A stretch of DNA of 64,000 nucleotides from an uncultured Acidimicrobiaceae bacterium. Its GTDB lineage: Bacteria > Actinomycetota > Acidimicrobiia > Acidimicrobiales > RAAP-2. Location of the stretch: the NCBI GenBank assembly GCA_963779735.1, contig CAVZZJ010000009.1:189622-253621 (forward strand), read 5' to 3'. The notes under the pieces were generated by a model, which saw only the letters and a program-made list of their open reading frames with translations, did not search any database and had not been told where the DNA came from. Shown piece after piece: positions 3,936 to 47,242 of the stretch. A program made the translations under genes and the position numbers. Each line of letters opens with the position of its first letter. Position 1 is the stretch's first letter.

Positions 3936-5192
3936 ATGACGACCGTCTCGGAGAACGAGCTGATGACCCGGGTGGAGGGTGATGCTCCCATGGGCCGGCT
4001 GATGCGGGAGAACTACTGGATCCCCTTCGCCCTCTCGGAGAACCTGGCGGCGGGAGACGCCCCGACGCCGGTGCGCCTGTTCGGCGAGAACTACATCGCC
4101 TTCCGGGCCGAGAACGGCCAGATCGGCTTCTTCGACGAGCTCTGCCCCCACCGGCGCGCCTCGTTGGCCCTGGGGCGCATAGAGGGCAACGGCGTGCGGT
4201 GCATCTATCACGGCTGGAAGATCGACGTGTCGGGCTGCGTGGCCGAGGCGCCCACCCAGGTCCAGCGGCCCGAGCAGTTCGCCGCCAGCGTGCGGGTCGC
4301 CCACTTCCCGGTGCACGAGGCGGGCGGGATCGCCTGGGTGTGGCTCGGCGCCGCCGACGAGCCGGCCTTCCCCGACCTGCCCTTCGACGCCCAGCACGGG
4401 GTCAACACCAAGATCACCGTCTCGCTTTTGCCCTGCAACTGGCTCCAGGGCCTAGAAGGCGGGCTCGACTCGGTGCACGGCACCATCTTGCATCAGACCT
4501 GGCTACGCGAGATCACCGGTGAGAAGCGCGCATCGATGGACACCGGAGGGGTCGATTCTACGTTCGCCGCCCCGCCCCGCTACGAGACGGAGACGACGCC
4601 CTACGGCATGCGAGCGGCCTCGCTGCGTAGCGTCGGCGAGGGCCAGACCTACACCCGGTTGTCGCACTTCTTCTTCCCCCTGGTCATCGTGGTGCCCACC
4701 GGCTGGGTCGACCACACCCAGATCTTCGCCTTCACCCCGGTCGACGACACCCACCACCAGGTCTTCTTCGGAAACTACGGCGTGGTGCCCCAGATGACGC
4801 AGTGGGACTTCGGCTCCGTCCGACGGGATATCGAGACCGATCCCCGGAACTTCGCCGCCGTCGGCGGCGATCGATCGAGCCGGTGGGGCCAGGACCGAGA
4901 GCTGATGAACGCCGGTCACTTCACCGGCATGGCTCGGAGCGTGATTGACGAGGACGCCCTCGTCCAGGTGAGCATGGGGCCCATCGTCGATCGATCCAAG
5001 GAGAACCTCTCCTCCAGCGACGTCGCCATCGCCCAGGCCCGTCGGCTGATCCTCGACTCGCTCGCCGCGGCCGAGACGGGCGGACTCCCCCCGGGCAGCG
5101 CACTGACCCCCGAGGTGATCCACGTCCCTCACCCCATGGACGCGACGGTGGAGGACGGTGTCTCGTGGCGCGAGCTTCAGAGCGTGAGCTGA
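3936..5192 (+). CDS. Rieske [2Fe-2S] aromatic-ring-hydroxylating oxygenase, alpha subunit-like
   Basis: Rieske motif CPHRRASL..(17 aa)..CIYHGWK. The length and C-terminal catalytic domain fit the KshA/phthalate-family type. Start taken at MTTVSENE. Confidence 0.85.
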   Translation: MTTVSENELMTRVEGDAPMGRLMRENYWIPFALSENLAAGDAPTPVRLFGENYIAFRAENGQIGFFDELCPHRRASLALGRIEGNGVRCIYHGWKIDVSGCVAEAPTQVQRPEQFAASVRVAHFPVHEAGGIAWVWLGAADEPAFPDLPFDAQHGVNTKITVSLLPCNWLQGLEGGLDSVHGTILHQTWLREITGEKRASMDTGGVDSTFAAPPRYETETTPYGMRAASLRSVGEGQTYTRLSHFFFPLVIVVPTGWVDHTQIFAFTPVDDTHHQVFFGNYGVVPQMTQWDFGSVRRDIETDPRNFAAVGGDRSSRWGQDRELMNAGHFTGMARSVIDEDALVQVSMGPIVDRSKENLSSSDVAIAQARRLILDSLAAAETGGLPPGSALTPEVIHVPHPMDATVEDGVSWRELQSVS

Positions 5193-5230
5193 CGAGGACG
5201 GGGACGGGGACGACGACGGGGACGGGCCGC

Positions 5231-6259
5231 CTACGCTGAGGCGTCGCCCCGAGGGACGGTGCCCGCGGCGGGGAGATAGGGGAACCGAGCCAGGCCCTGG
5301 TCGCGGGCTGCGCCCACCCAGATTTCGTCGCCCACCTGAAGTCCGGTTGTCGCCGCGCCGAACGTTTCGGGCCCGTACGCAACGACGGTCTCCATGGCCA
5401 GCGTGTCGGGGTCCACGAGCAGGACTCGGGACGGGAACGAGAGGCGCGGCTCGGGCCCGAAGTGGCCGGCGATGAACTCCTCGGCGGTGGTGTCACAGGC
5501 GCCGGCGGCGAGGAGCCGGCCGTCAGAGGTCCACGTCAGGTTGTCGGTCAGGATGTCGGTGCCGACGACGGACGACTCGGGGAGCGATCCACCGCGCCGC
5601 GCCTTTTTGATGCAGCGAGAGTGCCAGCCCCCTATGTAGACCCAGTGGCCGTCCTTGGACACGGCGACGCCGTTGGCGCTGTTGATCCCGGTTCCCGGCA
5701 GCTCGCTCCAGCCAGCTCCGGGCGACCATTCGAGGACGCCGCCGGTCTCATCGCCCGCCTCGGCACGGGCCATGCCCTGCTCCATTCCATCCCCCCGGAT
5801 CACGTTGACGCTCACGACGAACCCGCCCCCGTCCACGGCCGCGACGTCGTTGCCGACCGCGGAGCCGGGCAACATGGCGGCGCCGATCCAGCGCAGCGTC
5901 GGGCGGGCGGTGCCCTCCACCACCACCTCGAACACCTCGACCGACTCACGCCAGCCGTGATTGACGACGAACAGCTCGCCGATCCCGTCGGGGCGCAGCG
6001 CGATGTCGATGCCATGCGGCTCGAAGCGCAGCGGCTCGAGCGGCGCATGGCTCCCGAAGCGATCCGCGTCGAGGGCGTAGGAGGCGAGGTACGGGAAGAT
6101 CTCGTTGCACGAGTGGTCGCCGGCATCGACGGCGTAGAGCCGGCCCTGCGCCGCGCTCACCCCGGTCATGCCCGAGGTGACGATCCACTTGCTGGCGGGT
6201 ACCGGCGCCAGGTCCTCGGCATTGATCGGACCCCACACGTAGCCCTTCGCCTCGCTCAT
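5231..6259 (-). CDS. beta-propeller protein (arylesterase / strictosidine-synthase / SMP-30-like fold), function unknown
   Basis: 342-aa ORF with coding-like composition and repeated blade-like segments (NGVAVS.DG, GGF.VSV). The family assignment is tentative. Confidence 0.5.
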   Translation of the reverse strand: MSEAKGYVWGPINAEDLAPVPASKWIVTSGMTGVSAAQGRLYAVDAGDHSCNEIFPYLASYALDADRFGSHAPLEPLRFEPHGIDIALRPDGIGELFVVNHGWRESVEVFEVVVEGTARPTLRWIGAAMLPGSAVGNDVAAVDGGGFVVSVNVIRGDGMEQGMARAEAGDETGGVLEWSPGAGWSELPGTGINSANGVAVSKDGHWVYIGGWHSRCIKKARRGGSLPESSVVGTDILTDNLTWTSDGRLLAAGACDTTAEEFIAGHFGPEPRLSFPSRVLLVDPDTLAMETVVAYGPETFGAATTGLQVGDEIWVGAARDQGLARFPYLPAAGTVPRGDASA

Positions 6260-6285
6260 GGACCCCCCTTGCGCGCCCGGCAGGC

Positions 6286-7050
6286 TCAGGCGCCCAGCCG
6301 GTCCAGCATGTCGCTCGCCCGCTCGAGGCTGCGCCGCGTGGCGGACAGATAGCCCTCCGCCTCAATCTTCGGGCCGATCAGCTCCAGGTCGAACATGCCC
6401 TCATAGCCGGCACTGAGGATCAGGCCCAGCAGGCGTTCGAGGGGAATGTCCCCGTCACCGATCGCCACGCGGTCCGGCGACGACAGGGTCCCGATCTTGA
6501 AGTCGGCGATCTGGACCAACGTGATCATCTCCATGTTCTTCCGCAGCAGCTCCTCGAAGCCGCGCTCGTACCAACAGCAGGCCAACTCGAGCACGACGCC
6601 CGACCCGATGGCCCGCGCCAGCTCCAGCGAGTCGCGCAACGTGAAGATGAAGCTGATGTCGAGCCGCAACGAGTTCGTCGGCTCCACGGCGAACGTGATG
6701 CCCAGCTCGTTGGCCCTGGCCACCGTCGGCGCTATGCGCCGGGCGAAGTCGTCGGCCGCCTCCTCCCACAGCCGCGAGCCGATGGTGCCCGGGGTGATCC
6801 ACACCGAGTCCGCCCCCACGGCCGCCCCGAACTCGAGGGCCTCGCTGAGCACGCGCTCCTCGGTGCCGATGTTCGACACCTGCAGCCCCGTGTCGGCCAC
6901 CAAGGTGGCGTCCCAGCCGATCGCCTCTATCTTGGGCGAGATGACGCCGATGTTGGTGACACCGAGCTCCCTCCAGAACTCGACCTCTTCGACGAACGGG
7001 ATGGCACCGGCGCACTCCTCGTCCACCGAGATGCGGGGATGCCACGCCAT
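6286..7050 (-). CDS. sugar phosphate isomerase/epimerase (xylose-isomerase-like TIM barrel)
   Basis: 254-aa ORF with AP-endonuclease-2 / xylose-isomerase-like TIM pattern (..LGVTNIGV.., ELGITFAVEPTN, LVQIADF). Confidence 0.75.
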   Translation of the reverse strand: MAWHPRISVDEECAGAIPFVEEVEFWRELGVTNIGVISPKIEAIGWDATLVADTGLQVSNIGTEERVLSEALEFGAAVGADSVWITPGTIGSRLWEEAADDFARRIAPTVARANELGITFAVEPTNSLRLDISFIFTLRDSLELARAIGSGVVLELACCWYERGFEELLRKNMEMITLVQIADFKIGTLSSPDRVAIGDGDIPLERLLGLILSAGYEGMFDLELIGPKIEAEGYLSATRRSLERASDMLDRLGA

Positions 7051-7125
7051 GCGCGCAGGCTAACAGCCCCCGGCCACTCGGAGCCGGTGGTCGACTGAGC
7101 GCTCCTTTGTGCGCACCGGCCGGTC

Positions 7126-8031
7126 TCAGCCGGCGAAGCGCCGCTCGGGCACGCCACGGACCCCGAGGCCCCGCACCGCCAGCACACACCCGCCCAACGG
7201 GCCCGGTGGGGCTACCTCGCCCTCCAGCGTGGCGCTGCCCATGGACGTGACGAACAGGACGTCGAGGTCGGGACCTCCGAAGGCGACACTCGTGGGCATG
7301 CCGAGGGGCATGGGGAGTTGGCGATCGAGCGTCCCGTCGGGCGCATAGCGGCGGACGTCGCCGCCGTTGAAGGAGGCCACCCACACGAACCCCTCCTCGT
7401 CGACCGTCGCCCCGTCGGGCACCCCCGCCGACTCTCCGAACGCCGCCACCACGCGTTGGTGCGATGCCTCACCGGTGGAGGTGTCGTAGTCGTAGGCGTA
7501 AATCCGGCGGGCCCAGCTGTCGTTCCAAAAGAGCGTGGCGCCGTCGGGGCTGAAGCAGGGGCCGTTGCTGATCCCGATACCGCCGGCGAGGAGGCGCACC
7601 TGAAGGTCAGCATCGACGCGGTAGAGGGTCGGGGGGAGATCGGCGCTGTCGACGCGGTCGCGCGTCGCCGGGTCGAGAAGATCCCGGTCGACCATGCCGG
7701 TGACGAACCGGCCCTGGCGGTCCACCTTCCCGTCGTTGAAGCTCCAGCCCGGTCCGGCCTCGCTTTCGAAGATCGGCTCGGACTCCCCCGTCTGCAGATT
7801 TAGGAGGTGGATGGCCGCGCCCATGGTCACGATGGCTCCGCCCCCGGCTCGGAGAGCCAGGGCCGAGAGATGCCCCGGTGCCTCGAACACCCGGATCTCC
7901 CGGCCATCGGCCGTGCTGCAGAACACCAGCCCGCCGAAGACGTCGATCCAGTACAGGCGCTGCTCGTCGACGTCCCAGATCGGATTCTCGCCGAGCGTCG
8001 TCAGCACGGGCGTCACGACGTAAATCTCCAT
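7126..8031 (-). CDS. SMP-30/gluconolactonase/LRE family protein
   Basis: ATG at 8031 (MEIYVV..) within ORF 7126..8487. Motifs: LGENPIWD..QRLYWIDV, NDGKVDRQGRF, SNGPCFSPDG..L.W.DS, PDG..VDEEGFVWVA. Confidence 0.8.
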   Translation of the reverse strand: MEIYVVTPVLTTLGENPIWDVDEQRLYWIDVFGGLVFCSTADGREIRVFEAPGHLSALALRAGGGAIVTMGAAIHLLNLQTGESEPIFESEAGPGWSFNDGKVDRQGRFVTGMVDRDLLDPATRDRVDSADLPPTLYRVDADLQVRLLAGGIGISNGPCFSPDGATLFWNDSWARRIYAYDYDTSTGEASHQRVVAAFGESAGVPDGATVDEEGFVWVASFNGGDVRRYAPDGTLDRQLPMPLGMPTSVAFGGPDLDVLFVTSMGSATLEGEVAPPGPLGGCVLAVRGLGVRGVPERRFAG

Positions 8032-8206
8032 ACCCCCCCGTCCTCCCTCCACCTGGTTCGCCGCCGACGCTACCCGACCCGGCGCGAACCGGGGCCGGGC
8101 TCCAGGGGGATCGGCGCCGCCGGTCGGGTAAGGTCCACCCGGCGGCAGTTGGTCCCGGGCGGGGAAGCGGCCCGGGCCGGACAGCGACACGGAGGGGGAA
8201 GCCCGA

Positions 8207-8986
8207 ATGACAGTCACCGTGGTAACCGGAGCTGCCAGCGGCATGGGCCGCAGCTGCGTCGACCGGCTGCTCGGCACGACCGAGCACCTGGTCGCCGTCG
8301 ACCTCAAGGCACCGAAGATAGAGGGAGCCTCGGGGCTGGCCTGCGATGTCTCGGATCCCGACGCCGTCGCCGGCCTGATCGAACGGGTGCAGGAGCTCGG
8401 CGCCTTCCGGGCACTGGCCCACGCCGCGGGCGTCTCGCCGACGATGGCCGACGCCCGGCGGGTGCTCGAGGTCGACCTGGTCGGCACGGCCCTCCTGCTC
8501 GAGGCGTTCGAGCCGCTCGTGGTGCACGGATCGGCCGCGGTGTGCTGGTCCTCGAGCTCGGCCTACCAGATCGCGCCCGCCGGGGGCGATCCGGATCGTG
8601 ACCCGGTCCTCGACGTCCCCCTGTCGCCCGACTTCCTCGAGCGCATGGTGCCGCTGGTCTCCGACAGCGGCACCGCCTATGCGTGGGCCAAGCGGGGTGT
8701 GATCCGGGCGGTGGCGAGGGCGTCGGTGCCCTGGGGCCAGCGCGGCGGGCGGGTCAACTCGGTGGCGCCCGGCCTCATTGAGACACCGATGGGCATGCAG
8801 GAGTTCGAGGAGCACCCCATCATGAAGATGATGCTCGACAAGACGCCGCTCGGCCGGCTCGGCCGTTCCGAGGAGGTGGCCGCGCTCGCCGCGTACCTGC
8901 TCTCGGACGACGCGTCGTTCGTCTCGGGGGTCGACATCCTCATAGACGGCGCCATGATGCCCGGGATCGCCGAGCTCTTCTCCTAG
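8207..8986 (+). CDS. SDR family oxidoreductase
   Basis: N-terminal TGAASGMG Rossmann motif, YAWAK catalytic motif, 259 aa. Confidence 0.85.
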   Translation: MTVTVVTGAASGMGRSCVDRLLGTTEHLVAVDLKAPKIEGASGLACDVSDPDAVAGLIERVQELGAFRALAHAAGVSPTMADARRVLEVDLVGTALLLEAFEPLVVHGSAAVCWSSSSAYQIAPAGGDPDRDPVLDVPLSPDFLERMVPLVSDSGTAYAWAKRGVIRAVARASVPWGQRGGRVNSVAPGLIETPMGMQEFEEHPIMKMMLDKTPLGRLGRSEEVAALAAYLLSDDASFVSGVDILIDGAMMPGIAELFS

Positions 8987-9004
8987 GACGACAAGGAGCC
9001 ACAC

Positions 9005-9358
9005 ATGCCCAAATTCCATCACGCCAATCTGGGCGTCCCGCCCGAGCTCGCCGACGCCGAGGGAGAGTTCCTGGTCGGCATCCTCGGCTACCGCCGGCTC
9101 GAGCCCCCGCCGGCGGCGCGCGGCTTCGGCGCCCTGTGGTACGAGGCTGACGACGGCACGCAGGTCCACCTCAGCCCCGACCCCGACCACCGTCCCGCCG
9201 ACAAGGCGCACACGGCGATCGACGTCCGCGGCGAATGCGACGAGATAGTGGCGCGCCTCACAGCCGCAGGCGTGCCGTTCACCGCGGGTGAGTTCGACGG
9301 ACTGCGACTGGTGGTCTGCAAGGACCCGGCCGGGAACGGCTGGGAGCTGCGCGGCTGA
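9005..9358 (+). CDS. VOC (glyoxalase/bleomycin-resistance/dioxygenase) family protein
   Basis: 117-aa ORF. It has FHHANLGV at the N-terminus and DPAGNGWEL at the C-terminus, as expected for a VOC fold. Confidence 0.7.
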   Translation: MPKFHHANLGVPPELADAEGEFLVGILGYRRLEPPPAARGFGALWYEADDGTQVHLSPDPDHRPADKAHTAIDVRGECDEIVARLTAAGVPFTAGEFDGLRLVVCKDPAGNGWELRG

Positions 9359-9426
9359 TGCCCGCGGTGCGAGGGGGTTCCACTTCGCGCCGGCCGATCG
9401 ATCGTCCCCGGCCATAGGCGCCCACG

Positions 9427-10275
9427 GTGAGGATCGGCTTTCTCGGTGCGGGACGGATGGGTCGCCCGATGCTCGACCACCTGGTGGAGGCGGGCCACGA
9501 GGTCACCGTCCTGACGCGCCGGCCCGAGGCGCGGGCGGCCGCCGAGGCCGACGGGCTGGCGTGCGCCGACACCGTGGCGCAGACCGTGCGCGGCGCCGAG
9601 GTCGTCTTCGTGGTCGTCCTCAACGACGACCAGGTCCGGACGGTGTGCCTCGGCCCGGACGGGGCGATCGCCGCCATGGCCACGGGCGCGACGCTCGTCC
9701 AGCACACGACCTCTGACCCTGCGACCGCACAGCTACTCGTCGAGGCGGGTGCAGGCCGCGGCATCCGCGTGCTCGACGCGGCGCTCTCCGGTGGTCCGCA
9801 CGACATCGTCGCCGGCACCCTCACCCTGTGGGTCGGCGGTGACGAGCTCCTCCTCGAAGAGATGCGCCCCCTGCTCGAGACCTACGCCTCCCCCATCATG
9901 CTCGTCGGCCCTCCGGGCAACGGCCAGCGGGTCAAGCTGGTGAACAACTCGCTGTTCGTGGCCCAGGTGGGTCTGGCCGTCGACGCCGTGCGGCTCGCCG
10001 GCTCGCTCGGGATAGACGAGCGGGTCATCCTGGCCGCCGTGCAGCACGGCAGCGGCGCCAGCCGCGGCCTCGGCGTGGTGGCCGGGCTGGGATCGGTCGA
10101 CGCGGTCGGCGACCACCTGGCTGCGCTGATGGGCAAGGACGTCGCGGTGGTCCGCGAGGTGGCGCGACGGGCCGGCGTGGACCTCGGGATCATCGGAGAG
10201 GTGCTCTCGTCGGCGGCGGTGGAAGAGCGGGTGCTCCGTCGCTCGAGTGGTCACCCGGCGATGACGAGTCGGTAG
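9427..10275 (+). CDS. NAD(P)-dependent oxidoreductase (3-hydroxyisobutyrate/6-phosphogluconate dehydrogenase-like)
   Basis: N-terminal IGFLGAGRMG dinucleotide-binding motif, a later DA.LSGG motif, 282 aa. Confidence 0.8.
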   Translation: MRIGFLGAGRMGRPMLDHLVEAGHEVTVLTRRPEARAAAEADGLACADTVAQTVRGAEVVFVVVLNDDQVRTVCLGPDGAIAAMATGATLVQHTTSDPATAQLLVEAGAGRGIRVLDAALSGGPHDIVAGTLTLWVGGDELLLEEMRPLLETYASPIMLVGPPGNGQRVKLVNNSLFVAQVGLAVDAVRLAGSLGIDERVILAAVQHGSGASRGLGVVAGLGSVDAVGDHLAALMGKDVAVVREVARRAGVDLGIIGEVLSSAAVEERVLRRSSGHPAMTSR

Positions 10276-10286
10276 AGTCTGCACTG

Positions 10287-11297
10287 GTGTCGGGGGAAAA
10301 GGAGCGCCTCGTAGAAGCGGCGGGGCGGGAGGTGCGCATCTCGAGCCCCGACAAGATCTACTTCCCCGAGCTGGGCGCCACCAAGTTCGACCTGGTCTCG
10401 TACTACCTCGAGGTGGCCGAGGCGCTGCTCAACACCGCCGGCGGCCGTCCGGCCATGCTGCAGCGGTTTCCCAACGGCGCCACCGGCAGCTCGTTCTTCC
10501 AGAAGCGGGTGCCGCCCGGCGCCCCGTCGTGGCTGCGCACGACGACGGTCGTCACCCCGAACGGGACGACCTCCAACGCGCTCGTCGTGGCCGATATCGC
10601 CCATGTGCTGTGGGCGGTCAACCTCGGCTGCCTCGGGCTGCACCTGTGGCCGTACCTCGCCGCCGACCCCGACGTCGCCGATGAGCTCCGGATCGACCTC
10701 GACCCCCAGCCCGGCGTGGGGTTCGACGAGGTGCGCACGGCGGCCCTGCGCTGCCGCGAGCTTCTCACCGAGCTCGGCGTGGTCGCCTACCCGAAGACGA
10801 CCGGCAACCGGGGGCTGCACCTCTACATGCGCCTGGAGCCACGTTGGGACGCCACCACGGTGCGCGCCGCGGCGGTGGCCCTGGCCCGGGAGCTGGCACG
10901 CCGACATCCCGAACTGATCACCGCCGAGTGGTGGAAGGAGGAGCGCGGAAAGCGGGTCTTCGTCGACTTCAACCAGAACGCCCCCCACAAGACCGTCTTC
11001 GGGGCATGGTTCGCGCGTCCACGCAGCGGCGGCCAGGTCTCCTCGCCCCTGTCGTGGGACGAGATCGACGACGTCGTCCCCGACGACCTGACCATCCGGA
11101 CCGTCCCGGACCTCCTGCGGCGGAGGGGCGATCCCTGGGCGCTGATCGGACGGGAACCCCAGTCGCTCCAGCCGCTCCTCCAGCTCGCCGAGCGCGACCG
11201 GGCCGCGGGCCTTCACGACGCACCGTGGCCCCCCGAATACCCCAAGGGCGCCGACGAGCCGACGCGGGTCGCCCCCAGCCGGGCGAAGAAGGCCTAG
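10287..11297 (+). CDS. stand-alone LigD-type primase-polymerase domain protein (NHEJ PolDom)
   Basis: 336-aa ORF with V.ISSPDKIYFPE.G.TK.DLV.YY, FFQKR.P, RIDLDP, KTTGNRGLH.Y, VFVDFNQN. These are hallmark motifs of the LigD polymerase domain. Confidence 0.85.
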   Translation: MSGEKERLVEAAGREVRISSPDKIYFPELGATKFDLVSYYLEVAEALLNTAGGRPAMLQRFPNGATGSSFFQKRVPPGAPSWLRTTTVVTPNGTTSNALVVADIAHVLWAVNLGCLGLHLWPYLAADPDVADELRIDLDPQPGVGFDEVRTAALRCRELLTELGVVAYPKTTGNRGLHLYMRLEPRWDATTVRAAAVALARELARRHPELITAEWWKEERGKRVFVDFNQNAPHKTVFGAWFARPRSGGQVSSPLSWDEIDDVVPDDLTIRTVPDLLRRRGDPWALIGREPQSLQPLLQLAERDRAAGLHDAPWPPEYPKGADEPTRVAPSRAKKA

Positions 11298-11299
11298 CC

Positions 11300-12319
11300 G
11301 TGGACCCCGTCTCGGCCCTGCGCAGGATCTCCTACCTCTTGGAGCGAGACGGGGCGGACACCTACAAGGTCCGCGCCTTCCGCCAGGCCGCCCGGGCGCT
11401 CGAGCCGATGTCCCCTTCACAGCTGGCCGAGCTGGCCGCCGGCGGGCGCCTCCAGAGCATTCCCGGGGTGGGGAAGTCGACGGCGCGGGCCATCACCGAG
11501 GCGCTGGCCGGCGAGGTCCCCCAGTACCTGGCCACGCTCGAGACGGAGCCGCCGTCCGTCGCCCTCGACGCACCGGCCGAGGCGCTCCTCGACCAGCTCC
11601 GGGGGGACTGCCACTCGCACTCGGACTGGTCGGACGGGGGAAGCACCATTCGCGAGATGGCCGAGGCGGCAAGAGGCCTCGGTCACGACTACCTGGTCCT
11701 GACCGACCACAGCGCCCGGCTGACGGTGGCGCACGGCCTCGACGCCGGGCGGCTACGGGAACAGCTCACGGTTGTCCAGGCGCTCAACGAGGAGATGGCG
11801 CCGTTCCGGATCCTGACCGGCATAGAGGTGGACATCCTCGAGGACGGCACCCTGGACCAGGACGAGGACCTGCTCGCGCTGCTCGACGTGGTGGTGGCCA
11901 GCGTGCACTCCAAGCTGCGGATGGACGCCGGCGACATGACGGCCCGCATGCTCGCCGCCGTGGAGAGCCCCCACACCGACATCCTCGGACACTGCACCGG
12001 CCGGCTCATCACCGGCCGCGGGCGGCCGCCCTCCGCCTTCGACGCCGAGGCCGTCTTCGCCGCCTGCGGCCGCACGGGCACCGCCGTGGAGATCAACTCG
12101 CGTCCCGAGCGGCAGGATCCGCCCGAGGAGCTCCTGCGCCTGGCCATCGACCTGGGGTGCCTGGTGTCCATCGACAGCGACGCGCACGCTCCGGGCCAAC
12201 TCGAGTGGCTCGGTCGGGGTTGCGCCAACGCGGTCCGGGCCGAGGTGCCCGAAGAGCGCGTCGTGAACCGCGGCTCCGCCGACGAGCTCTTGGCCTGGAC
12301 GGCCACCCACGCCGCCTGA
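11300..12319 (+). CDS. helix-hairpin-helix + PHP domain protein (PolX C-terminal-like phosphoesterase, no polymerase palm)
   Basis: GTG at 11300, in frame within ORF 10844..12319. The N-terminus has YKVRAFRQAA..IPGVGKSTA (HhH). PHP metal motifs follow: GDCHSHSDWSDG, LTDHS, ASVHS, GHCTGR, DSDAH. Confidence 0.75.
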   Translation: MDPVSALRRISYLLERDGADTYKVRAFRQAARALEPMSPSQLAELAAGGRLQSIPGVGKSTARAITEALAGEVPQYLATLETEPPSVALDAPAEALLDQLRGDCHSHSDWSDGGSTIREMAEAARGLGHDYLVLTDHSARLTVAHGLDAGRLREQLTVVQALNEEMAPFRILTGIEVDILEDGTLDQDEDLLALLDVVVASVHSKLRMDAGDMTARMLAAVESPHTDILGHCTGRLITGRGRPPSAFDAEAVFAACGRTGTAVEINSRPERQDPPEELLRLAIDLGCLVSIDSDAHAPGQLEWLGRGCANAVRAEVPEERVVNRGSADELLAWTATHAA

Positions 12320-12350
12320 GGGGAACCCGGCTCGTAGGTACGATCGGGCG

Positions 12351-13412
12351 GTGACCCTCCCGCTCAGACCACCGGTGTCCCCGATGCTGGCCAAGCTCAC
12401 CCGAGAACTCCCCCGGGCCTCGGACATGTTCTACGAGCCCAAGTGGGACGGGTTCCGGTGCATCGTCTTCCGGGACGGCGACGAGGTGGAGCTCGGCAGC
12501 CGGAACGAGAAGCCCCTGACCCGCTACTTCCCCGAGCTGATGGACCCGCTCCGGCGCGATCTGCCCGATCGGTGCGTGCTCGACGGGGAGATCGTGATCG
12601 CCGGGCCTTCCGGCCTGGACTTCGACGCCTTGTCGCAGCGGATCCATCCGGCCGAGTCGCGGATCACCCTCCTGGCGGCGACGACGCCCGCATCCTTCGT
12701 GGCCTTCGACCTCCTCGCCCTCGGCGATCGCGACCTGTGCGATGCTCCCTACCGCGAGCGCAGGGGCCTTCTCGAAGAGGCGCTCAGATCCGCCACCGCA
12801 CCGGTGCACGTGACCCCGGTGACCAGCGACCCCGAGGTGGCCGCCGACTGGTTCTCCCGCTTCGAAGGAGCGGGCCTCGACGGTGTGGTGGCCAAGCCCG
12901 GCGATCTGCGCTACCTCCCCGACAAGCGGGCGATGTTCAAGGTCAAGCACGAACGGACCGCCGACTGCGTGGTGGCCGGCTTCCGATGGCACAAGGAGGG
13001 CGGGGTGATCGGATCGCTCCTGCTCGGCCTGTACGACCAGGACGGTGCGCTGCACCACGTCGGCGTGGCCTCGGGCTTCACCGCGGCCCGGCGCCGGGAG
13101 CTCGTGGCCGAACTCGAGCCGCTGCGGGCCGGCGCCGTCGAAGGCCACCCTTGGTTGGAGTCGGCCAGCGCGTCCAGCCGGCTCCCGGGCGGCACCAGCC
13201 GCTGGAGCGCGGGAAAGGACATGAGCTGGGAGCCCCTCCGGCCCGAACTGGTCTGCGAGGTGGGCTACGACCATCTCCAAGAGCAGCGCTTCCGTCACGG
13301 CACGTCCTTTCGTCGCTGGCGGGCCGATCGGGTGCCGTCCTCGTGCACCTATGCCCAGCTCGACACCCCGGTCCCGACCGAGCTGTCCTTGGTATTCGAC
13401 GCCCTCGGCTGA
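12351..13412 (+). CDS. ATP-dependent DNA ligase (LigC / LigD ligase-domain type)
   Basis: 353-aa ORF. Motif I is EPKWDGFR with the adenylation lysine. It also has LDGEIV, FVAFDLL, GLDGVVAK and a C-terminal OB-fold region. Confidence 0.85.
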   Translation: MTLPLRPPVSPMLAKLTRELPRASDMFYEPKWDGFRCIVFRDGDEVELGSRNEKPLTRYFPELMDPLRRDLPDRCVLDGEIVIAGPSGLDFDALSQRIHPAESRITLLAATTPASFVAFDLLALGDRDLCDAPYRERRGLLEEALRSATAPVHVTPVTSDPEVAADWFSRFEGAGLDGVVAKPGDLRYLPDKRAMFKVKHERTADCVVAGFRWHKEGGVIGSLLLGLYDQDGALHHVGVASGFTAARRRELVAELEPLRAGAVEGHPWLESASASSRLPGGTSRWSAGKDMSWEPLRPELVCEVGYDHLQEQRFRHGTSFRRWRADRVPSSCTYAQLDTPVPTELSLVFDALG

Positions 13413-13507
13413 CGCCGGGCGGGGCCGGGGGCAGGACCGGAGGGCGACCGGAGGGCGGGGCCCGGGGGCGGGCCCGGAGGGCGGGGTGGCCCGCATCATC
13501 AGTGGAG

Positions 13508-13604
13508 AAAGGTTCACGGTCAGGCGGCGGAGCGGCCAGGGCAACCCGCTCGACAGGATGGCGGCACGTACCCGATGGCGTGCCTCACGCACCCGCTGCG
13601 TCGG
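13508..13604 (-). repeat. comM/yifB 5'-fragment repeat, copy A (att-like)
   Basis: A 97-bp segment nearly identical to 40662-40757 (3 differences, one of them a 1-nt indel). The minus strand encodes [29 protein letters not shown] with no continuation of comM. Confidence 0.7.
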
Positions 13605-13650
13605 GGGTTGGGAGCAGTGGGCCGCTGCAGTGGGACTCAGGATTGGCCGA

Positions 13651-14412
13651 TCATCGGCGCCGAGCGACGAAGTACGCTCGAGCGCAATCGTCATTCGGGT
13701 CTTCGCCAGCTGGGTCAGTGACCTCCAGAAGGGTGAAGCGTGGCGCCAGCGCGGATTCGATCCTCCCAAGCCCCACGCCAAGTTCCCGAATCCGCTCATG
13801 ATGGAGGATGAACCGGTCCTCTCCCACATGCTCGAATACCTTGATTTCCCAGATCCACAGGTCGTCATGGTCCAGCTGGACATCCATGATGACAGTGTTG
13901 CCGTCGAAGTCTTGCACCCAGGGTTGAGCCTCACCGAGCTGGCGGAGCTCTCCGATGGTGTTGACGTCGAAAATGAACAGACCGCCTTCCACAAGGTGGT
14001 CATTGGTTCGCTCGAACAGATCGTTCCACAAGCTGAAACTGGGCAAGTGGTTCAAGGTGTCGAAGACGCACATGACGACGTCGAAGCGCTCACCGATGTC
14101 GAAGGTCGCGATGTCGCCCTCGATAAGACGAGCCTGAGGTACCTTGCCCCTCGCGATCGCCAACATCTCTGGTGACCGGTCCAAGCCGGTGAGTGATGGG
14201 AGGCTCGACAGCCCGGCGAGGATGGCTCCGGTGCCACACCCGAGTTCGAGCAGCGACGATGCCTCAGGGAGGTACTCGTCGATGGCCTCAAGAACGCGGG
14301 TGCTCTTGGGCTGGGGATCGTCCATGAGCGCGTCGTAAAAGCGGGCAAAGCTGTCGTAATCAAGCACGCTCCCATAGTGCCCGAAGACCGCCCTGACATG
14401 GAGAGGCCGCAC
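13651..14412 (-). CDS. class I SAM-dependent methyltransferase
   Basis: Within ORF 13651..14796. SAM motif I is LLELGCGTG. There are post-I acidic residues and a FIFDV motif. Putative GTG start at 14412. GC is lower than in the flanks. Confidence 0.7.
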   Translation of the reverse strand: MRPLHVRAVFGHYGSVLDYDSFARFYDALMDDPQPKSTRVLEAIDEYLPEASSLLELGCGTGAILAGLSSLPSLTGLDRSPEMLAIARGKVPQARLIEGDIATFDIGERFDVVMCVFDTLNHLPSFSLWNDLFERTNDHLVEGGLFIFDVNTIGELRQLGEAQPWVQDFDGNTVIMDVQLDHDDLWIWEIKVFEHVGEDRFILHHERIRELGVGLGRIESALAPRFTLLEVTDPAGEDPNDDCARAYFVARRR

Positions 14413-14603
14413 GTATCGGCGGCAACGGCTGAAGGGTCCGAATATTGGGACGGCATCGTCGCTGCCTTCGGAACGCCCCGTGATGCGATGGACTCCGACG
14501 AGGAAACTCCGAAGGCCGAACGAATTCGGGCAATCATCGCTTCGGGGAAACCGCTGTGCCCAAGGCCGTCGTCCGCCTGCCAAGCGACCCCCGACGAAAA
14601 TGG

Positions 14604-15044
14604 TCAATCGCTGTCGAGGACGTATCGGGGACCGGAGCCCCGTTTCGCAGCCAGGTCGTCGGGGTTCATCAATTTGCAGACCCCCAACGAGAGGCAGCCA
14701 CAGCCGATGCACGCACCGAGGCGGTCCCGCAGTCGTTCGAGCATGGCGATCCGGGCGTCGATACGGGGACGCCACGAGTTGGACAGCCGCTGCCAATCCT
14801 TCTGATTCGGGGTACGGCTCTTTGGCAACGAACCCAGAGCAGCGCGGATCTCCTCGAGGGAGAGCCCGACTTGCTGGGCTACGAGGATGAATGACACCCG
14901 CCGGATGACGTCGCGGGCGTATCGGCGCTGTCCCCCGTCGGATCGGGTGGCCGAGATGAGACCCTCGGTCTCGTAGTACCGCAGCGCCGAGGTGGCCACG
15001 CCGGTACGTTCGCTCACGGCGCCGATCGTCAACTCTGGTCCCAT
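14604..15044 (-). CDS. soxR: redox-sensitive transcriptional activator SoxR (MerR family, [2Fe-2S])
   Basis: MerR HTH (LTIGAVSERTGVATSALRYYE) plus the SoxR cluster motif CIGCGCLSLGVCKLMNP near the C-terminus. Confidence 0.85.
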   Translation of the reverse strand: MGPELTIGAVSERTGVATSALRYYETEGLISATRSDGGQRRYARDVIRRVSFILVAQQVGLSLEEIRAALGSLPKSRTPNQKDWQRLSNSWRPRIDARIAMLERLRDRLGACIGCGCLSLGVCKLMNPDDLAAKRGSGPRYVLDSD

Positions 15045-15068
15045 CGCCTCGAATCTATCTGGAATTCC

Positions 15069-15100
15069 CTTGACTTCAAGTGAACTTGAACAAGTACGGT
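15069..15100 (+). promoter_or_regulatory. SoxR-box promoter (-35 TTGACT, 19-nt spacer containing an inverted repeat, -10 TACGGT)
   Basis: TTGACT is at 15070-15075 and TACGGT at 15095-15100. The 19-nt spacer carries the perfect inverted repeat TTCAAGT-GA-ACTTGAA (15075-15090). It lies between soxR and the divergent oxidoreductase gene. Confidence 0.65.
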
Positions 15101-15127
15101 CGATACGAAACGAGCAAAGGAGCGTTC

Positions 15128-16108
15128 ATGCAGGCAATCCAGGTGGCACAGTTCGGCGGTCCAGAGGTGCTGGTGCCGGTCGACGTCCCCGACCCCATCG
15201 CCGGCCCGGGACAAGCGGTCATCGCCGCGACGGCAGCCGATCTCCTCTTCCTCGACGCCGTGATCCGCTCCGGCTTGGCCACCGAGTTCTTCCCGCTCCT
15301 GCCCCCCTACATCCCGGGCAACGGCGTTGCCGGCACCGTGGTCTCCGTCGGACCGGACACCGATGGCAACTGGATCGGTCGGCAGGTGGTGGCCCGCACC
15401 GGGGACAACGGTGGATCGGGAGGATACGCCCAGCGGGCGGTCGTTGCGGTCGATCACTTGGTCCCGGTTCCCGACAGCCTTGGCCTCCTCGAAGCCGCAG
15501 CCTTGCTCCACGATGGAGCCACCGCGCTGGGCCTGGTCGAGAGCTTTCCGATCCAATCCGGCCAATGGGTGCTCGTCGTGGGCGCCAGTGGCGGCCTCGG
15601 GGCCCTGTTGGTACAGCTGGCCCGCGTCGCCGGTGGACATGTCATTGGAGCAGCCCGTGGCCCGGCGAAACTGGACCTGGCCCTAGAGGTCGGCGCCGAC
15701 CTGGCGGTCGACAATTCCGATCCGGACTGGCCCAAAGCGGTGATCGAAGCGACCGGAGGTCACGGGGTGGACCTGGTGTTCGACAATGTCGGCGGACCCG
15801 TCGGCCTCGCCTCATTCGGGGCCATCGCCGCGGGCGGCCGGTTCTCCGCCCATGGTGCTCCCGCCGGCGGGTTCACCGTCGTCGACCCGACCGAAGCCGC
15901 CCGCCTCGGGGTGACCATACGAGGGATAGAACAGGCCCAGTTCTCCCCCTCCGACCTGATCCGGCTGACCAGAAGGGCGCTGGCCGACGGTGCCGAGGGG
16001 CTCATCCGTCCGATCATCGGACAAACCTTCCCGCTGGAACACGCGGCCGACGCGCACCGGGCCATCGAGACCCGCACCGTCATCGGGAAGACCTTGCTGG
16101 TCATCTGA
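15128..16108 (+). CDS. quinone oxidoreductase / zinc-type alcohol dehydrogenase superfamily (MDR) protein
   Basis: ATG at 15128 is preceded by AAAGGAG. N-terminus is MQAIQVAQFGGPEVL. The NAD(P) site is VVGASGGLG. C-terminus is GKTLLV. Confidence 0.8.
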   Translation: MQAIQVAQFGGPEVLVPVDVPDPIAGPGQAVIAATAADLLFLDAVIRSGLATEFFPLLPPYIPGNGVAGTVVSVGPDTDGNWIGRQVVARTGDNGGSGGYAQRAVVAVDHLVPVPDSLGLLEAAALLHDGATALGLVESFPIQSGQWVLVVGASGGLGALLVQLARVAGGHVIGAARGPAKLDLALEVGADLAVDNSDPDWPKAVIEATGGHGVDLVFDNVGGPVGLASFGAIAAGGRFSAHGAPAGGFTVVDPTEAARLGVTIRGIEQAQFSPSDLIRLTRRALADGAEGLIRPIIGQTFPLEHAADAHRAIETRTVIGKTLLVI

Positions 16109-46327: not shown

Positions 46328-47242
46328 TCAGCTGCTGATGGTGCCGTCCCTTCCGCCGCCCGGCCGCGCCAGGGAGGCAGCACGCGCCGCCAGGGCCGGG
46401 GCCCGCAGGCGGTGGCACGCTTCGTCGAATGCCGGGGTGGGCCCGCGCCATTCGAGGTCGGCGACCTGTGCCAACAGGGATCGCTCGACCCGGAGCGTGG
46501 CTAGCACGCGAAACAGCTCCACCAGATCGCGCTGGTCCCGCAGAGTGGCCGCCAGCCGTTCCGCCCCGCGGACCGCCTTGCGCACCGCGGGATCCCAGTG
46601 CGCGACGTCGTCCGGAACGGAGTCGAGATGTACGTAGTGCGCCAGGACCACCGCGGCCGAGCGCTTGCCCCACCCGCTCAGGCCGGGGAACCCGTCGGCG
46701 GCATCGCCCACCAGCGCCAGCCAGTCCGGGATGGAGGTGGGCGACACCCCGAACTTGGCCCGTACGCCGTCCTCGTCGATGAGCAGGTCCTTGCGGCGAT
46801 CGAGCTGCACGACCCGGCGTCCGGCCACGCACTGGGACAGGTCCTTGTCCGGCGTGCAGATGATCACCTGCTCGACGCCGTGGTCGTCGGCGGCCACGGC
46901 TGCGGCCGATGCCAGCGCATCGTCGGCTTCGAGGTCGACCATGGGCCAGACCACGACCCCGAGTGCCCAAAGGGCCTCCTCCACCATGTCGAACTGCGAT
47001 CGGAGGACCTCGGGCACCTCCTCCCCGGTCTTGTAGCCCGGCCACAGCTCGTTGCGGAACGAGGGGATCACGTGGTCGGTGGCCACCCCTAGGTGCGTGA
47101 CGCCCCCCTCGAGCATGGCGAGCACCGTGGCGACCACGCCGTAGGTGGCGCCGATCTCCGCTCCGTCCTCGCCCGCCCTCGGAGGCTGCCCGAAGAAGTG
47201 GCGGAACAGCTCGTAGGTCCCGTCGAGGAGATGCACGCGCAC
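46328..47242 (-). CDS. 5'-3' exonuclease (FEN / Pol I N-terminal-domain-like)
   Basis: 304-aa ORF with LLDG....FR, R.E..P.YK, EADD, D.D..Q and GVSP..IPDWLALVGDAADGFPG (H3TH). Confidence 0.85.
   Translation of the reverse strand: MRVHLLDGTYELFRHFFGQPPRAGEDGAEIGATYGVVATVLAMLEGGVTHLGVATDHVIPSFRNELWPGYKTGEEVPEVLRSQFDMVEEALWALGVVVWPMVDLEADDALASAAAVAADDHGVEQVIICTPDKDLSQCVAGRRVVQLDRRKDLLIDEDGVRAKFGVSPTSIPDWLALVGDAADGFPGLSGWGKRSAAVVLAHYVHLDSVPDDVAHWDPAVRKAVRGAERLAATLRDQRDLVELFRVLATLRVERSLLAQVADLEWRGPTPAFDEACHRLRAPALAARAASLARPGGGRDGTISS

Follow-up and report, generated by a model that had tools for sequence, protein, structure and literature searches.

A PolX-like PHP-domain gene within a probable LigC/Prim-PolC short-gap repair operon of an uncultured Acidimicrobiaceae bacterium

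The 64-kb stretch of DNA analyzed here, called the window, covers positions 189622-253621 of contig C9 of an uncultured Acidimicrobiaceae bacterium, whose genome comprises 4.98 Mb in 13 contigs and is 85% complete. It contains a probable operon in which the LigC/Prim-PolC short-gap DNA repair system, made up of a stand-alone primase-polymerase and an ATP-dependent DNA ligase, is accompanied by a third dedicated enzyme, a PolX-like protein. LigC and Prim-PolC fill and seal gaps of 1-3 nucleotides (nt) and bind nucleases of base excision repair (Plocinski et al. 2017, PMC5663958; PMC7442782), and they are known for base excision repair and the repair of short gaps, Ku-dependent end joining not being their main function (PMC5663958, PMC7442782). 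In mycobacteria and other Actinomycetota the two are recognized as an excision-repair system of stationary phase, whose 3'-end-preparing enzyme is only partly known. New in this work is a named but uncharacterized protein as candidate partner of the known system: on balance, we think it probable that the PolX-like protein supplies 3'-end cleaning, or incision of apurinic/apyrimidinic (AP) sites, to short-gap repair by LigC and Prim-PolC. The cassette gives the PolX-like family, including Rv3856c of Mycobacterium tuberculosis, a testable job, that of an end-cleaning partner in gap repair.

Gene organization and protein identities

The three genes are consecutive open reading frames (ORFs) on the plus strand, separated by spacers of 2 nt and then 31 nt; an earlier note on this DNA had described this arrangement, and the ORF coordinates bear it out:

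10287..11297, plus strand, gene 1, Prim-PolC ortholog (stand-alone archaeo-eukaryotic primase (AEP) type primase-polymerase), 336 residues, TAG stop at 11295-11297
11300..12319, plus strand, gene 2, PolX-like protein, 339 residues, GTG start at 11300
12351..13412, plus strand, gene 3, LigC-type ATP-dependent DNA ligase, 353 residues, GTG start at 12351

The 2-nt gap between genes 1 and 2 suggests translational coupling, and the three genes are probably co-transcribed. A scan of positions 8000-15200 for promoters and terminators was uninformative, the terminator-like sites found there being as expected from shuffled sequence.

Gene 1 matches the Pfam family LigD_Prim-Pol (PF21686, 2e-87). It had been read as a stand-alone LigD-type primase-polymerase, of which the stand-alone primase-polymerase holds, but the subfamily is Prim-PolC and not the polymerase domain (PolDom) of LigD. 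Among solved structures it is closest to those of M. smegmatis Prim-PolC, 6SA0, 6SA1 and 5OP0 (343 bits over residues 10-332), whereas the PolDom of M. tuberculosis LigD (2IRU) gives only 154 bits. The short-gap-filling subfamily is marked by Loop 3 (M. smegmatis residues 313-333, with P320, N321, K324 and R331; Brissett et al. 2020, PMC7442782), which limits Prim-PolC to short gaps and prevents the in-trans break synapsis used by PolD (PMC7442782). Gene 1 has this loop at residues 312-332 of the alignment to 6SA0, with P316, K320 and R327 in the places of P320, K324 and R331, respectively. The DxD and WWK motifs and the gating Arg are kept, and the segments DELRxDLDP, FxDxNQN and WWKEERG align with 6SA0. 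At 336 residues it is also longer than the PolD-type paralog of the same genome, which has 297. By these matches, gene 1 is classed as an ortholog of mycobacterial Prim-PolC with the defining Loop 3.

Gene 3 matches the NCBIfam equivalog NF006078 (PRK08224) over profile positions 1-346 of 350, with 543.7 bits against a cut-off of 296. Pfam finds DNA_ligase_A_M (PF01068, 4e-41) and DNA_ligase_A_C (PF04679, 6e-16) and no other domains, so that the protein has the adenylation and OB domains without a polymerase or phosphoesterase (PE) domain, and the KxDG motif reads EPKWDG in the translation. The ATP-dependent ligase recognized in the earlier note is on these grounds assigned to the LigC type.

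Gene 2 belongs over its full length to the NCBIfam equivalog NF005928 (PRK07945), matching profile positions 1-336 of 337 with 518.7 bits against a cut-off of 250. This family was named 'PolX-like' in Nucleic Acids Research in 2026, where it is described as almost exclusive to Actinobacteria and without the polymerase region (PMC12926913); the example given there is M. tuberculosis P96221, with a role 'to be established' (PMC12926913). Rv3856c of M. tuberculosis has been suggested as a back-up AP endonuclease (Puri et al. 2014, PMC4011885). As had been proposed from the letters of the window, the protein joins a helix-hairpin-helix (HhH) segment to a PHP domain and lacks a polymerase palm: Pfam detects only HHH_8 (6e-12, residues 4-70) and PHP (residues 103-204). 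Its layout comprises a PolX 8-kDa-type HhH domain (about residues 1-85), a helical linker and a PolX-type PHP domain (about residues 100-337). Residues 4-75 align with the 8-kDa domain of the Deinococcus radiodurans and Thermus thermophilus PolX proteins, and residues 93-335 match the PHP domain of their structures with about 180 bits. The alignments to 2W9M and 3AU2 span PolX residues 14-84 and 315-557 only. The PolX polymerase model NF006375 is likewise matched in just two stretches, with 242 bits against a cut-off of 426, and the thumb, palm, fingers and Asp triad of a bacterial PolX polymerase are not found. The AlphaFold2 model (pLDDT 91.2, pTM 0.89) consists of six N-terminal helices followed by a PHP barrel. 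PolX structures head the Foldseek fold search (2W9M and 3AUO; E 5e-22 to 4e-20; 38% identity), and the model superimposes on 3AUO with a root-mean-square deviation of 1.8 A over 242 columns; the matches to YcdX, at about 1e-12, and to histidinol phosphatases, at about 1e-7, are weaker.

The active site was compared in an alignment of 152 PolX-like members, composed of the window protein and those of 80 close, 57 phylum-wide and 14 divergent loci. The nine PHP metal ligands (H105, H107, D112, H137, E176, H203, H231, D294 and H296) are invariant apart from two departures: the divergent clade has Gln in place of the first ligand, like T. thermophilus PolX, and a single anomalous row among the 138 main-clade sequences deviates at the last two ligand positions. 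R235, N266 and R271 are invariant across all 152 members and R240 mostly so. These are the equivalents of R469, N498, R503 and R474 of Bacillus subtilis PolX, which are required for all its nuclease activities (PMC6616362). No reliable equivalent was obtained for K545 of the PolX DNA path; the position tried is variable. Since the metal ligands and these DNA-path residues are intact, the PolX-like protein appears to be catalytically active on DNA 3' ends, as a nuclease or phosphoesterase. Sequence, fold, metal-ligand and DNA-path evidence agree on a PolX-type nucleic-acid enzyme and not a histidinol-phosphate phosphatase of the HisJ/HisK kind.

Conservation of the cassette in the family

Relatives were sought by scanning one genome per GTDB species, which gave 558 that were confirmed, and the best 80 (63-85% identity) were fetched with 6-kb flanks. 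The polymerase, PolX-like and ligase genes are collinear in 58 of these 80 loci, where the PolX-like protein is 65-85% identical to that of the window, and two more loci are cut at a contig end but show PolX-like and ligase genes in this order. A rearranged form, here called form B, with the polymerase gene inverted (Lig> <Pol PHP>), occurs in six of the 80, with one further partial example (L062); its polymerase is likewise of the Prim-PolC type (377 bits to 6SA0). In the remaining 13 loci, some of them at contig ends, the PolX-like gene stands alone. The arrangement recurs far more than expected by chance. The earlier note had left room for an ordinary histidinol phosphatase and for a gene order confined to this genome; the PolX-type identity and the conserved linkage leave neither standing.

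In the window the cassette is flanked upstream by SDR, VOC and HIBADH genes and downstream by methyltransferase, SoxR and quinone oxidoreductase genes, none of which lies beside it in any relative fetched, even at 84% identity. The trio is kept where its flanks are not shared, and it therefore behaves as a unit. The SDR, VOC and HIBADH genes are on the same strand as the trio and packed 11-68 nt apart. They were considered as operon members and rejected: because their homologs are absent beside the cassette in all relatives fetched, they are placed outside the conserved unit. In this genome, read-through transcription from them into the trio may occur.

An unbiased sample of 120 genomes of the window's family was used to follow joint presence. 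PolX-like and LigC genes occur together in 45 genomes, PolX-like alone in two, LigC alone in nine and neither in 64. Where a genus is mixed, the two genes are found in the same genomes (three of eight in genus g255 and six of eight in g1). Of the 47 PolX-like genes, 20 are directly upstream of LigC and seven more lie within 3.5 kb, a total of 27, while 18 are elsewhere or on another contig and two belong to genomes without a detected LigC. A further component is frequent in the fetched relatives: in 27 of the 80 loci, among them the three closest to the window, LigC faces a convergent gene for a FEN-type 5'-3' exonuclease of 294 residues (PF02739 + PF01367).

Prim-PolC appears as two tblastn pieces in different frames in six of the loci (L018, L023, L026, L051, L053 and L054), and in three of these (L023, L026 and L051) LigC too is in two frame-shifted pieces. 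These are either frameshift errors of long-read metagenome-assembled genomes or decaying copies.

Distribution in the phylum and a divergent clade

A sample of 401 genomes of the phylum gave 64 genomes above the PRK07945 cut-off, and the other matches were mostly full-length PolX. All full-length PolX-like loci, 57 from 55 genomes, were fetched. A second linkage was found in a divergent PolX-like group of another class (family code f14; 36-43% identity, about 240-250 bits), where LigC is adjacent in five of 14 fetched loci. Three of these five include a polymerase gene as well, arranged as <PHP Lig> <Pol, whose product is of the Prim-PolC type (356 bits to 6SA0). In a FastTree phylogeny rooted on PolX PHP domains, the divergent group is a deep sister of all other PolX-like proteins (support 100) and the linked clade of the window is nested deep inside the main PolX-like clade (support 98). 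The association of PolX-like with LigC was either gained twice or is early-ancestral and often lost; both histories favor function over accident.

The divergent subfamily as a whole (L146-L159; family codes f14, f47, f23 and f67) scores about 230-250 bits, just under or at the PRK07945 cut-off, and has Gln as first metal ligand, as T. thermophilus PolX does; NCBIfam would mostly leave it unnamed. In the same tree, and by FastTree only, the PolX-like proteins of the window's family group with family f19, of another class, and not with families of their own order (f3, f2, f5 and f7). This hints at horizontal transfer of the PolX-like gene or at a tree artefact.

Relation to LigD and non-homologous end joining

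The earlier note had proposed a 'split LigD', in which the PHP protein takes the place of the LigD phosphoesterase, and had suggested a search of the genome for Ku and further ligase genes. The search found a LigD-type set for non-homologous end joining (NHEJ) outside the window:

G000:C6:483109-484557, minus strand, PE-Lig LigD, 482 residues (PF13298 + PF01068 + PF04679; no polymerase domain)
G000:C4:114266-115159, plus strand, PolD-type PolDom, 297 residues (226 bits to LigD PolDom versus 152 bits to Prim-PolC)
C2:257872-258942, C6:603447-604421 and C4:406455-407516, three dispersed Ku genes

The reported absence of Ku from the window is therefore correct, the three Ku genes being on contigs C2, C4 and C6 while the window is on C9. 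The replacement of the phosphoesterase had to be given up: the polymerase is of the Prim-PolC type, the ligase is LigC and the genome has its own PE-Lig LigD. The LigD model TIGR02776 is matched only below its cut-off (232 and 141 bits against 373), the PE domain is absent from the trio, and the LigD-type paralogs and Ku are encoded elsewhere and not with the trio, as they would be in a classical LigD/NHEJ operon. No further NHEJ gene was seen beside the LigD, PolD and Ku loci, among the few neighbors scanned with Pfam. The trio is a LigC/Prim-PolC module, paralogous to a LigD-type toolkit that has its own phosphoesterase, and the analysis corrects a tempting mis-annotation of such gene sets as 'split LigD / NHEJ'.

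Both modules adjoin in one relative, L065, where positions 4987-12967 hold a seven-gene repair island (Prim-PolC> PolX-like> LigC> <FEN <Ku PE-Lig LigD> PolD>). Each module is complete there and LigD keeps its own PE domain, as confirmed by Pfam. The same island order was seen in L088 by tblastn only.

Comparison with known systems

The mycobacterial LigC/Prim-PolC system is the nearest known counterpart. It too has a stand-alone Prim-PolC with Loop 3 encoded together with a LigC of about 350 residues, and the window proteins are clear orthologs of both. Published descriptions of its operon, however, mention no nuclease gene between or beside these two, whereas the window has the PolX-like gene between them, and end processing in mycobacteria is ascribed to the interacting XthA/ExoIII and EndoIV, which are encoded elsewhere. 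The lineage of the window also differs in having FEN ancestrally next to LigC and a Glu instead of Asn as the Loop 3 pin residue.

The actinobacterial PolX-like proteins (PMC12926913, Rv3856c) belong to the same family as the gene 2 product (519 bits), with an N-terminal helical/HhH part, an active PHP domain and no polymerase domain, but their genes are unlinked in the phylum-wide loci fetched, while the window copy lies within the probable LigC operon. Bacterial PolX (B. subtilis YshC, T. thermophilus, D. radiodurans and the polymerase-dead noncanonical forms) shares the 8-kDa and PHP domains, the nine-residue metal site and the basic DNA path, and PolX genes have been associated with ligases and NHEJ genes (PMC9226535); the window protein differs by a Leu at the position of Phe440. 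Classical LigD with Ku has homologous polymerase and ligase folds and also pairs an end-cleaning activity with a polymerase and a ligase. Unlike it, the window trio consists of separate genes of the LigC/PolC type, with no PE domain and no Ku beside them in the window.

Our literature search found no paper that links a PHP or PolX-like protein to LigC or Prim-Pol, and 'LigC' is absent from PMC12926913. Plocinski et al. (PMC5663958) used DNA baits to pull down proteins from M. smegmatis lysate, and their Supplementary Data 3 lists once each Prim-PolC (MSMEG6301, 5 peptides) and MSMEG6445, a 'PHP domain protein' (2 peptides). The layout and the descending intensities place both rows in the column for the 1-nt gap with 5'-phosphate. 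As MSMEG6445 is unconfirmed as the Rv3856c ortholog, this entry is a lead only; a literature search for MSMEG_6445 found no paper.

Proposed role of the PolX-like protein

In the favored mechanism, the removal of a damaged base or a strand break would be followed by recruitment of the PolX-like protein to the nick or gap through its PolX 8-kDa-type HhH domain. The trinuclear-metal PHP site would then yield a clean 3'-OH, acting as 3'-phosphatase, 3'-phosphodiesterase or 3'-5' exonuclease, and the protein may also incise AP sites. Prim-PolC would fill the 1-3-nt gap, gripping its 5'-phosphate and, on the opposite side, using Loop 3 to hold the upstream duplex, the ancestrally adjacent FEN would take off 5' flaps or 5' blocking groups, and LigC would close the nick. 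We infer that the three proteins are coupled physically or functionally. The pathway would be excision or single-strand-break repair more than Ku-dependent end joining, and the FEN-type exonuclease points more to excision and gap repair than to end joining.

Extending this role beyond the linked genomes is tentative. The PolX-like protein might be a dedicated nuclease subunit of the LigC/Prim-PolC machine throughout Actinomycetota, binding LigC or Prim-PolC and making ligatable gaps out of AP sites and blocked 3' ends, also in genomes where its gene is unlinked, Rv3856c included, although we regard this as doubtful. If true, this might account for the dispensability of the classical AP endonucleases of M. 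tuberculosis in infected guinea pigs (PMC4011885). The recurrence of the cassette in two deep clades, as Prim-PolC, PolX-like and LigC, often with FEN, makes the guess about the function of Rv3856c directly testable.

Several observations weigh against the proposed role. In gene 1, the pin residue of Loop 3, N321, is replaced by a Glu (E317). Members of the PolX-like family always have Leu in place of PolX Phe440, a residue presumed to sense AP sites. The position that we align with the dRP-lyase Lys72 of Pol beta (dRP, deoxyribose phosphate) is V, A or I in PolX-like proteins. These two substitutions make AP-endonuclease and lyase activities uncertain. A Ku gene lies within 6 kb of the cassette in seven of the 80 close loci. 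Neither PolDom nor LigC was found within 5 kb of the PolX-like gene in any of the 57 phylum-wide loci, which include families f46 and f32, with the largest genomes (5-10 Mb), and 10 genomes from the window's own order. No other neighbor is conserved across these 57 loci, only clade-specific clusters of at most nine loci being seen in a rough screen whose gene caller, based on GC content at third codon positions, missed the PHP gene in 11 of the 57. In favor of the role, LigC is present somewhere in 54 of the 56 genomes that carry a full-length PolX-like gene, compared with 188 of the 401 sampled in all, but these counts are not phylogenetically independent. Within a single family, moreover, linkage partly reflects shared ancestry and not repeated selection. 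A trio common to the whole PolX-like family was considered and rejected, with none of the 57 phylum-wide loci linked.

The PHP domain might instead serve as a trans-acting proofreader, its 3'-5' exonuclease mainly excising ribonucleotides, mismatches and oxidized nucleotides put in by Prim-PolC. This is rather unlikely, although Prim-PolC is a low-fidelity enzyme that prefers ribonucleoside triphosphates (PMC5663958, PMC7442782), the PolX-like gene follows the polymerase gene after only 2 nt, and the PHP domain of Staphylococcus aureus PolX excises misincorporated deoxyribo-, ribo- and oxidized nucleotides (PMC7893174). Proofreading and end cleaning would share the same active site, and sequence cannot separate the two. 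LigC seals nicks after Prim-PolC has inserted ribonucleotides (PMC5663958), so that their removal is not obviously required.

Ku-dependent end joining, a role considered in the earlier note, would make the trio a three-protein NHEJ ligase set, with the PHP protein in the role of the LigD 3'-phosphoesterase and Ku encoded elsewhere. The three Ku genes of the genome would suit this role, as would Ku in seven of the 80 loci, including form B, where it comes after the co-oriented PolX-like gene (424 nt away in L074), and the islands that cassettes share with Ku and LigD parts in L065 and L088 (Pfam for L065 only). PolX is statistically tied to NHEJ systems without a nuclease domain (Prostova et al., PMC9226535), LigD is the commonest operon neighbor of polymerase-dead PolX in Alphaproteobacteria (PMC9226535), and a back-up function of mycobacterial LigC as NHEJ ligase has come under discussion (PMC5663958; PMC8068969). 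The genome, however, has its own PE-Lig LigD and PolD-type polymerase, so that no PE replacement is needed. Moreover, the polymerase is of the Prim-PolC type in all three arrangements, and its Loop 3 blocks in-trans synapsis (PMC7442782). No Ku is found within 6 kb in 73 of the 80 loci, and the commonest fourth gene is FEN (27 of 80) and not Ku. A part in break repair or end joining is a minority reading, which we hold to be unlikely.

Mere neighborhood without partnership seems improbable as well. The PolX-like protein would then act on its own in Actinomycetota, as a general nuclease for 3' ends or AP sites, and in this family its gene would by chance have landed between prim-polC and ligC and been kept there by descent. 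The unlinked phylum-wide loci, the 18 of 47 family genes that are away from LigC or on another contig, and the lack of a conserved neighborhood for the PolX-like family as a whole are all in line with such a history. Yet the cassette outlasts the turnover of its flanks and survives the inversion of the polymerase gene in form B, and clustering arose or stayed separately, in another order, in the deep divergent clade. Genes 1 and 2, only 2 nt apart, may be translationally coupled, and joint presence or absence is strong within single genera (g255 and g1).

Finally, a small-molecule phosphatase of histidinol-phosphate or nucleotide type without a DNA role is very improbable and was already disfavored, since the PHP superfamily includes such enzymes but the weak matches to the HisJ-family model TIGR01856 (26.6 bits, cut-off 90.2) and the NCBIfam nucleoside-bisphosphate phosphatase model (24.4 bits, cut-off 400) are far under their cut-offs, whereas the PolX HhH domain and DNA-path residues are present and PolX leads both in the PHP alignment and, by many orders of magnitude in E, over histidinol phosphatases in the fold search.

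The FEN gene and the intervening 32.9-kb segment

The window has a FEN-type gene of its own, at a distance from the trio:

46328..47242, minus strand, FEN-type 5'-3' exonuclease, 304 residues (Pfam PF02739 + PF01367)

Its product is 79% identical to that of the gene converging directly on LigC in the closest relatives (L009-L011). By blastn, positions 4986-8155 of L009 correspond to 10286-13446 of the window and positions 8121-8991 to 46371-47241. The block that is continuous in L009 is thus split in the window, where about 32.9 kb (13447-46370) now part LigC from FEN. The window FEN is a displaced fourth member of the ancestral cluster, and the segment 13447-46370 is an insertion or rearrangement at the LigC/FEN junction. 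A convergent FEN also accompanies unlinked PolX-like genes of family f61 (L136 4953-7217 and L131 5001-8302), with a gap of 3 nt between the two genes in L136, as measured to the longest ORF call.

In L009-L011, LigC and FEN converge stop-to-stop, and the segment 13447-46370 of the window lies exactly at that junction. It carries a SoxR regulon, a radical-SAM/ATP-grasp set and a patch of low GC content (58-63%) at about 28-42 kb.

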